DNA of 15,142 nt from a virus (Duplodnaviria; Heunggongvirae; Uroviricota; Caudoviricetes), in IMG/VR virus record IMGVR_UViG_2671180770_000004, positions 1-15,142 of that record; one strand, written 5' to 3'. Every line of letters starts with the position of its first letter. The stretch's first letter is position 1. Shown in pieces: positions 11,554 through 12,120 of this stretch. The position numbers and the translations under genes were made by a program. The notes beneath the pieces were generated by a model. It did not search any database, was not told the DNA's origin, and saw only the letters and a program-made list of their open reading frames with translations.

Positions 11554-12120
11554 ATGGCTAAACCAGCGCGAAGACGATGTAACCGTAAAAGAGAAGATTT
11601 AACTGTTAAAAGGATATTTGAGTTACTAAGTTTCGATAAATCTACCGGGGTATTTAGATGGAAAGTTCCCACTCAGGGAAGGATAGCATTAAATAGTGTT
11701 GCTGGAACTTTTGATTCCAACGGTTATTCAATGATCATAATAGATGGGCGTAGATATAAAACTCACGTCTTAGTTTTTTACATAACTCATAATCGTTGGC
11801 CTGCTGGTCAAATTGACCACGTTAATGGAATTAGGACCGACAATAGGCCAGAAAATTTAAGAGAATGCCTGCCAATAGAAAATTCAAGAAATATAAGGAT
11901 CCGAAAGAATAGCAAATCAGGTTGCAGAGGGGTTACTTGGCACAAACGACAGAAAAAATGGAATGTTAGGCTAGGATTCCATGGCAAGAGTAAACACTTC
12001 GGATGCTTTGATGATCTGGAGTTAGCGGTACTAGTTGCTGAAGAAGCCCGAGATAAGTATTACGGTGATTTTTCCGGCAACGAAAGGAGCACTTATGCGA
12101 ATCTATCGAAGGAAATGTAA
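11554..12120 (+). CDS. HNH-AP2 homing endonuclease
   Basis: HNH motif ...[59 protein letters not shown]... and AP2-type DNA-binding domain [61 protein letters not shown]. The first 9 codons (MAKPARRRC) match the lambda NinG N-terminus by recall. Confidence 0.8.

Follow-up and report, generated by a model that had tools for sequence, protein, structure and literature searches.

The stretch of DNA analysed here (referred to as the window; 15,142 nucleotides (nt), IMG/VR record IMGVR_UViG_2671180770_000004) is the immunity-replication-nin-Q region of a lambdoid prophage. It encodes a cI-like repressor, cro, cII, O with iterons, a DnaB-type helicase and NinB; NinB is followed by a large low-GC open reading frame (ORF) on the minus strand, the endonuclease/ninG region that is the subject of this work, NinH, a NinI-type phosphatase and Q. 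Among phage records, those of the Stx1 phages SH2026Stx1 and AU6Stx1 are nearest; they annotate the two genes of the endonuclease/ninG region as 'HNH endonuclease' and 'NinG'. Here, we describe how these genes are joined: an HNH-AP2 endonuclease ORF begins with the start of a lambda-type ninG (rap), and a complete but chimeric ninG restarts within the end of that ORF.

An HNH-AP2 endonuclease ORF at the 5' end of ninG

The endonuclease ORF and its two domains occupy the following positions.

11554-12120, plus strand: HNH-AP2 endonuclease ORF, 188 amino acids (aa), supported by Pfam, PHROG and an AlphaFold2 model; stop codon TAA at 12118-12120
11755-11874, plus strand: HNH_3 catalytic domain, residues 68-107 (DHVNG...NLRE...EN), by Pfam
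11920-12066, plus strand: AP2-type DNA-binding domain, residues 123-171, by a Pfam match below cut-off and model superposition

A preliminary description of the window had read this ORF as a short NinG-like start that switches to an HNH-AP2 sequence, and both domains were recovered. HNH_3 (PF13392) scored 42.7 bits against a Pfam cut-off of 24.8, and the ORF matched PHROG 99 ('HNH endonuclease') with E = 1.3e-70; the AP2 domain, below its Pfam cut-off, was supported by superposition of the model. The AlphaFold2 model had an overall predicted local distance difference test score (pLDDT) of 85.5, with residues 11-175 confident and the AP2 part above 90. The best fold match in the PDB for the N-terminal/HNH part was I-HmuI (1u3e; probability 1.00, 106 columns, root-mean-square deviation (rmsd) 3.9 A), and the C-terminal part superposed on AtERF1 (1gcc; rmsd 1.3 A over 51 columns, TMt 0.68) and on TEM1 (7et4; rmsd 1.0 A over 48 columns). 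A sequence search of the PDB returned one marginal AP2 match only. Residues D88, H89, N101, L102, R103 and N110 were invariant in an alignment of 13 sequences (i.e., the endonuclease and 12 metagenomic homologues).

Homologues of the endonuclease were detected in 3524 phage records by tblastn. Beyond four records that carry the same allele, the best of these shared 44% identity with it; they belong to Jersey-like Salmonella phages and T5-like phages, where their annotation is HNH homing endonuclease. Among GTDB species representatives, the single match was distant and lay in a Planctomycetota metagenome-assembled genome. HNH plus AP2 is a recognised homing-endonuclease family, attributed in PMC10448857 to Magnani, Sjolander and Hake 2004. 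Together, these matches and the model indicate that the gene is a free-standing homing-endonuclease gene of the HNH_3 plus AP2 family, with a predicted I-HmuI-like catalytic fold.

The two nearest metagenomic relatives have genomic contexts other than ninG. One of them, the closest non-allelic relative (P0004, 44% identical; JGI metagenome contig L119, 1033-1927), lies on a T7-like contig and overlaps the 3' end of a T7-type endonuclease I gene; a second family member thus also adjoins the gene for a junction-resolving nuclease (a Holliday-junction resolvase).

The endonuclease ORF begins with the initiation region of ninG

Upstream of the endonuclease domains, the window retains two pieces of a lambda-type ninF-ninG junction.

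11537-11553, plus strand: what remains of the ninF 3' end; the match to lambda and to prophages with ninF starts at 11537/11541
11554-11582, plus strand: lambda-type ninG start, consisting of the ATG, codons 1-9 (MAKPARRRC) and 2 extra nt; now the endonuclease start

The window and lambda agree at 40 of 42 nt over 11541-11582, and the match is complete (29/29 nt) from the ATG at 11554 through 11582, which bears out the proposal that the endonuclease ORF begins with lambda NinG MAKPARRRC. The Shine-Dalgarno (SD) sequence GGAGG (11540-11544) serves this ORF, and the stop codon of the ninF frame (TAA) lies at 11559-11561. Alignments to homologues start at residues 12-16 and stop at about residues 171-174 (tblastn), and model confidence was low at residues 1-10 and 176-188 (pLDDT <50 in the 176-188 tail). 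The C-terminal tail extends beyond all homologues and results from reading through the SD and start of the new ninG.

No in-frame ATG, GTG or TTG was present between 11554 and the conserved domain. Our comparison covered 59 loci (55 from IMG/VR, three database loci and the window itself), which showed three upstream contexts: the low-GC moron that the window also has (38 loci), and two alleles of ninF, each with a complete ninF (11 and 10 loci). The upstream frame is closed in the ninF-type contexts, so 11554 is the sole start common to all three. Since the endonuclease is joined in frame after ninG codon 9, it is predicted to be translated from the ninF-coupled SD and ATG of ninG. A promoter and terminator scan found nothing within the cassette delimited below, and the endonuclease ORF and ninG are co-transcribed and translationally overlapped. 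These sequence and model data indicate that the predicted fusion of the endonuclease body to nine ninG codons is real.

A low-GC cassette stands in place of lambda ninG sequence

The foreign block and a repeat at its left edge are placed as follows.

11583-12178, plus strand: imported low-GC cassette, 596 bp; takes the place of lambda ninG nt 30-93
11572-11612, plus strand: imperfect two-copy tandem repeat with a period of 20 nt (Tandem Repeats Finder (TRF) score 54), exactly across the left junction

We aligned the window with insert-free ninF-ninG junctions (lambda, HK106, mEp234 and many E. coli prophages), which placed the boundaries at 11582/11583 and 12178/12179. Identity to lambda is lost at the first and regained at 12179 (TGTGGAACCAAG...), and 64 nt of lambda-type ninG (about codons 10-31) are replaced. 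These boundaries come from anchored comparisons and blastn; a global MAFFT alignment of the window with lambda misplaced the left junction. The preliminary description was right to place the endonuclease at the 5' end of ninG and fused to its initiation region; the simple insertion that it proposed gives way to a replacement of lambda ninG nt 30-93, because the second ninG start was imported within the foreign 596-bp block. Besides the endonuclease body, the block contributes an SD and 28 codons for a NinG N-terminus unlike that of lambda. Its GC content is 38.9% in the endonuclease body and 28.6% in the 84-nt ninG N-terminal segment (25% at third codon positions (GC3)), compared to 49.9% in the ninG body and 50.5% in the equivalent lambda segment.

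The two junctions differ in character. The right junction is a homologous crossover within a highly conserved ninG coding stretch, and the left junction must have been illegitimate. The 20-nt tandem repeat (copy 1, AGACGATGTAACCGT-AAAAG; copy 2, AGAAGATTTAACTGTTAAAAG) may be a scar of the left junction, left by microhomology or slippage. The whole window has only four TRF arrays, of which this is one, and the repeat is invariant among the 59 loci; any such array arose in 0.5% of 200 dinucleotide shuffles of 11554-12697.

Other insertions occur near this site. Phage Sf6 (L121, 249-1497) carries an IS911, annotated in its record, in ninG after codon 33 and a few nt from the position of the right boundary, which suggests that the 5' end of ninG tolerates or attracts insertions. 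E. coli BS15R-A (L122, 1139-1408) has an unrelated 89-aa ORF between ninF and a lambda-type ninG, with its start overlapping the ninF stop, and represents a second kind of insertion at the ninF/ninG junction. Both had been candidates for parallel cassettes, as their similarity to the window begins only at ~12179, and both were rejected given what they carry (IS911 and the unrelated 89-aa gene).

The restarted ninG encodes a chimeric, full-length protein

The second ninG start and its parts are listed here with the two short repeats that the ninG starts share.

12084-12089, plus strand: SD AAGGAG of the restarted ninG, 5 nt ahead of its ATG and inside the endonuclease C-terminal tail
12095-12697, plus strand: chimeric complete ninG (rap), 200 aa; PF05766, E = 4.2e-85, model positions 5-192 of 193
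12095-12178, plus strand: replacement ninG N-terminus, 28 codons, with a zinc-ribbon-like Cys motif of C-x2-C type
12179-12697, plus strand: lambda-type ninG body, part of the 97% identity to lambda over 12179-14238 (blastn)
11569-11582, plus strand: first copy of the short repeat, CGAAGACGATGTAA, coding R-R-R-C-K
12107-12120, plus strand: second copy, CGAAGGAAATGTAA, coding R-R-K-C-K of the new NinG; it ends in the three bases of the endonuclease stop

The restart at 12095 with its own ribosome-binding site, already noted in the preliminary description, overlaps the endonuclease ORF by 26 nt in a different frame and yields a full-length PF05766 protein, with the whole domain of the junction-specific endonuclease NinG/Rap and its N-terminal Cys cluster. 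Because the new N-terminus joins the lambda-type body at the conserved stretch beginning TGTGGAACCAAG, full-length NinG is predicted still to be made. The second start also carries, as claimed, a diverged copy of the NinG motif seen at the first start: R-R-(R/K)-C-K, at the corresponding position of the protein. The two 14-nt copies are indeed identical at 11 of 14 positions, lie 1 and 2 nt from where they were first placed, and as a match alone are within chance: with at most 3 mismatches allowed, the window has 5 matches where 1.25 are expected, and as many as 5 arise in 3 of 200 shuffles. What gives the repeat meaning, in our view, is that each copy codes for R-R-(R/K)-C-K at one and the same NinG position.

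The replacement N-terminus is 56% identical to its lambda equivalent at the DNA level, compared to 44 +/- 3% in shuffles, which argues that the two are homologous but very distant. Its Cys pattern (C8/C11...C25/C29) parallels that of lambda (C9/C14...C28/C32), and it fits the NinG family motif; its cysteines are spaced C-x2-C, as in NinG proteins of 933W type and in more distant ones, and not C-x4-C as in lambda. We found no close relative of this segment outside the cassette: tblastn against phages gave nothing nearer than 61-65%, HMMER against 1.84e9 protein representatives gave no N-terminus nearer than lambda-like ones, and a 40-aa word-index search returned fragments of the same allele only.

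The segment and the endonuclease travel together. They co-occur in all 54 IMG/VR loci with readable upstream sequence (exact 29-mer search) and in 7 of 7 metagenome loci (codon-degenerate pattern), the latter all nucleotide-identical to the window, and the replacement N-terminus was never seen without the endonuclease among these 54 and 7 loci. It is also 100% conserved in loci L002-L004.

Elsewhere, the NinG N-terminal Cys motif (C-x2-C ... F-x-P ... Q-x-Y/W-C-S) is found in 3-6 tandem copies in P0024, P0025, P0028 and P0032, which are unrelated proteins of 177-489 aa. Its tandem repetition in unrelated proteins suggests that the motif is an independent zinc-ribbon module.

The cassette is widespread and far less diverse than its flank

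The cassette occurs, at the identical junction, in 538 of 5426 complete E. coli genomes (about 10%), in 571 copies with a maximum of three per genome (O111:H- 11128 is one of the genomes with more than one copy); 536 of these 538 carriers have a cassette at least 99% identical. A Salmonella Infantis prophage also has it, between ninF and ninG, as does a lambda-like E. coli prophage with a complete ninB-D-E-X-F series. Other ninG loci are lambda-type empty sites, i.e., presence and absence are polymorphic at a fixed site. When IMG taxon ids of cassette-bearing and lambda-type target loci were compared by eye, the only id shared among the matches listed was a metagenome. The same junctions are shared by 59/59 loci; there are five classes of downstream context and at least nine flank combinations, and the cassette is found in two host genera.

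Nucleotide diversity (pi) across the 59 loci was 0.0045 in the endonuclease body, 0.0021 in the new ninG N-terminus and 0.052 in the ninG body. Diversity in the cassette is thus ~10-fold lower than in the ninG body beside it, and the change is abrupt, at 12183/12184. The value for the left flank (0.053) is inflated by a mosaic boundary at 11534-11540, and only one common single-nucleotide polymorphism lies in 11541-11582. Pairwise comparisons with L002-L004 gave 99.0-100% identity in the cassette and 95.4-96.5% in the ninG body. Haplotypes of the right flank are heavily shuffled. Within the endonuclease, segregating changes comprise 12 synonymous and 12 non-synonymous ones (ratio of non-synonymous to synonymous polymorphism (pN/pS) 0.27), and all but two of those at intermediate frequency are synonymous.

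A probable mobile homing-endonuclease gene and the alternatives

We consider it probable that a free-standing HNH_3/AP2 homing-endonuclease gene entered a lambda-type ninG (rap) as a 596-bp low-GC cassette. We infer that the protein would cleave DNA and home from its family membership, its intact catalytic residues, the purifying selection on it and the architecture of the locus. Mobility and marker exclusion are putative as well; the population data fit spread by recombination, whether or not the nuclease drives it.

The following course of events, modelled on free-standing phage homing endonucleases (PMC2988022, PMC2790892), could account for the locus. The endonuclease and the replacement ninG 5' segment would have been acquired jointly from a low-GC lambdoid phage, as yet unsampled, that had the endonuclease directly ahead of ninG. 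The left junction would have arisen once, by illegitimate or microhomology repair, and the cassette would later have spread via flanking homology. On meeting a cassette-free lambda-type ninG, the enzyme would nick or cut it within or near the replaced codons 10-31, and repair from a cassette-bearing phage, co-infecting or co-resident, would copy the cassette in. The AT-rich recoded segment would protect carriers from cutting; carrier and empty alleles differ across the 64 nt that adjoin the insert. AP2 domains favour GC-rich sites, according to PMC10448857, which cites Magnani et al. The replaced lambda segment has GCCGGG and its AT-rich substitute does not, and we offer as a suggestion only that GCCGGG may be an AP2-favoured target lost in carriers.

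At its fullest, this scheme describes an actively homing package of three parts, i.e., a start captured in frame from the target gene, a nuclease, and a 5' 'exon' that is recoded, immune to cleavage, equipped with its own SD and able to restore the target protein. We advance it tentatively, as a possibility on the doubtful side. If true, each homing event would swap the zinc-ribbon N-terminus of Rap/NinG, and co-conversion could drag adjacent morons, for instance the low-GC 617-aa gene upstream (described below) and the Stx1 region of Traversvirus phages, through the prophages of enterohaemorrhagic E. coli (EHEC).

Several observations weigh against entry and homing as set out above. No donor lineage and no intermediate relative (47-98% identity to the endonuclease) was found among 5.8e9 proteins; the AP2 match to Pfam (PF00847) scored 22.2 bits, below the 33.3 cut-off, and Foldseek E-values for the model were weak (8e-3). 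The E. coli carriers are mainly O157:H7, O111 and other EHEC, and much of the count is clonal. Endonuclease haplotypes track the upstream context almost perfectly, so that few independent transfers on the left side are needed. No co-conversion gradient was seen in the right flank, where common polymorphisms begin 9 nt past the cassette. Homing into diverse alleles would produce such a pattern, but it and the contrast in diversity are equally expected from a single origin plus ordinary lambdoid recombination with a large cassette-free population.

The clonal carriers, the context-bound haplotypes and a right flank with no co-conversion gradient would be expected if the gene were a passive passenger, i.e., a dead or domesticated HNH-AP2 relic spread by lambdoid mosaic recombination and EHEC clonal expansion with no present homing. 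Decaying copies speak for this as well: the ORF of L060 is frameshifted by a 1-nt deletion (equivalent to window position 11774), P0003 is a 104-aa E. coli protein with the AP2 half only behind an unrelated N-terminus, and singleton changes hit the invariant residue N101 (N101S) and P83 (P83T), also invariant. However, the ORF is intact in 58 of 59 copies with its catalytic residues preserved, the pN/pS of 0.27 and the mostly synonymous changes at intermediate frequency point to constraint, and the cassette sits in two host genera and in at least nine flank combinations. We regard a relic of this kind as rather unlikely, while giving it real weight.

Purifying selection would be expected if the HNH-AP2 protein were useful to the phage and not selfish, whether as an accessory nuclease to Rap/NinG, as an exclusion nuclease against lambdoid competitors or as an AP2 transcription factor. 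Its co-transcription and translational overlap with ninG, the T7-type endonuclease I resolvase gene beside its closest metagenomic relative, and the co-option of HNH-family domains elsewhere (PMC10448857) also lean this way. We nevertheless find such a role improbable: both its architecture and its closest relatives place the protein with free-standing homing endonucleases, the cassette is absent from ~90% of E. coli genomes and from most prophages that have ninG, the PADLOC-DB defence models gave no family at E <= 1e-3, and the gene has no adjacent terminase gene, unlike packaging HNH proteins.

The preliminary description had favoured a local event, in which the endonuclease alone inserted, the resident ninG 5' end was duplicated and its downstream copy diverged in place. 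Both copies encode the same NinG motif, and removal of the 538 nt between the repeats gives an in-frame NinG, as this would predict. The features of the second start speak against it and assign that start to the imported block: the downstream copy is 44% diverged in DNA beside a body 97% identical to lambda, its GC (28.6%; GC3 25%) matches the endonuclease and not the host gene, its Cys spacing differs (C-x2-C), and it shows almost no polymorphism among the 59 loci, i.e., no sign of ongoing fast divergence. Local duplication is therefore highly improbable.

Finally, a group I intron or intein carrying the endonuclease, which its location inside a coding region and the in-frame hybrid NinG left by removal of the 538 nt might recall, can for practical purposes be dismissed, as an Rfam 15 E-value scan of 11000-12800 on both strands gave 0 hits, Pfam shows no intein splicing domains, the endonuclease ORF closes with its own stop codon (TAA, 12118-12120), and ninG restarts with its own SD and ATG, a +1 frame shift between its parts and a complete PF05766.

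Other features of the window

Four further features lie outside the endonuclease/ninG region.

9213-11066, minus strand: low-GC moron ORF, 617 aa, GC 34%; stands in place of the ninC-ninF genes
11301-11359: hexanucleotide microsatellite (TATTTC) x 9.8, between the moron and the endonuclease ORF
5353-5384 and 5419-5447: 11-nt perfect iterons TTGTCCAACGG, 2.9 and 2.6 copies, within the O-like replication gene
14400-15086, plus strand: hydrophobic ORF, 228 aa, directly downstream of Q; sole match PHROG 1521 (unknown function)

The moron ORF lies in a low-GC block that spans ~8900 to 11536. It had no match in Pfam, NCBIfam or PADLOC, and its sole match was PHROG 9230 (unknown function). In each locus examined, the moron context came with the HNH cassette (38/59 loci), and no moron without the cassette appeared in the phage or E. 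coli listings. At the microsatellite, the blastn alignment of the window to phage SH2026Stx1 is interrupted and overlapping, which suggests variation in copy number. The TTGTCCAACGG iterons are presumably origin iterons. Around the 228-aa ORF, similarity to lambda has stopped (at 14238) and GC falls to about 36-39%; its position is where Stx phages carry stx or other morons.

Implications and comparison with known systems

The gene is annotated merely as 'HNH endonuclease' in >500 complete genomes, and the chimeric NinG and captured start are absent from annotation and from the literature searched. If the enzyme is active, it would be a homing endonuclease among temperate lambdoid/Stx prophages, as opposed to the lytic phages of T4, T5 and SPO1 type that have served for studies of homing. 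Because it sits in a recombination gene and within ~2 kb of Q/stx (in Stx1 phages), it could bias which nin-Q-stx alleles survive recombination among EHEC prophages, and the cassette could help to explain the sharp mosaic boundary within ninG. Such an architecture would neatly allow a selfish gene to settle in a coding region and leave it functional, in that the start is borrowed and a replacement N-terminus supplied. Interest would rise if homing among Stx prophages were demonstrated.

We found no paper describing the ninG HNH-AP2 cassette in the literature searched; a review figure of nin regions merely marks 'HNH' boxes (PMC4118853). The family is already known; the ninG site and the temperate lambdoid/Stx prophage setting are new as far as that literature shows.

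The closest known relatives are the HNH-AP2 homing endonucleases of Jersey-like and T5-like phages, which have the same order of an N-terminal beta region, HNH_3 and a C-terminal AP2 domain in about 150-190 aa, and which likewise are free-standing phage genes adjoining a conserved DNA-metabolism gene. The predicted endonuclease described here differs in being 44% identical to its nearest relative, in its site within ninG of lambdoid prophages and in lacking a start of its own, as it would be translated fused to nine host-gene codons. I-HmuI of the Bacillus phage SPO1, an intron-encoded HNH nicking enzyme, offers the best solved structure for the N-terminal/HNH part, but shares 18% identity, resides in a group I intron and has helix-turn-helix modules instead of AP2.

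SegF, SegG and MobE of T4 (PMC2988022) resemble the cassette in lying beside or inside a conserved gene, in being polymorphic for presence among related phages and in the expected mode of spread, i.e., double-strand-break repair with co-conversion and marker exclusion. They are intergenic, have their own starts and have been experimentally tested, whereas the cassette is embedded in the 5' end of its target gene and brings a replacement 5' coding segment. The mobE gene in nrdA of phage Aeh1 is, according to PMC3045599 and PMC2988022, also a homing-endonuclease gene inside a coding region, and there too coding sequence supplied by the element preserves the function of the host protein. The Aeh1 protein is split into two polypeptides that reassemble; here a nine-codon stub goes to the endonuclease and NinG is one polypeptide. 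An HNH insertion in the methylase gene of actinophage ShiLan (PMC11855218) is similarly embedded in a host gene with overlapping frames and neither intron nor intein, but in that case the host gene reads through in frame with the HNH hidden in another frame, whereas ninG re-initiates. Alongside these systems, the element in ninG is a previously undescribed but rather ordinary case of a mobile gene whose kind is known.

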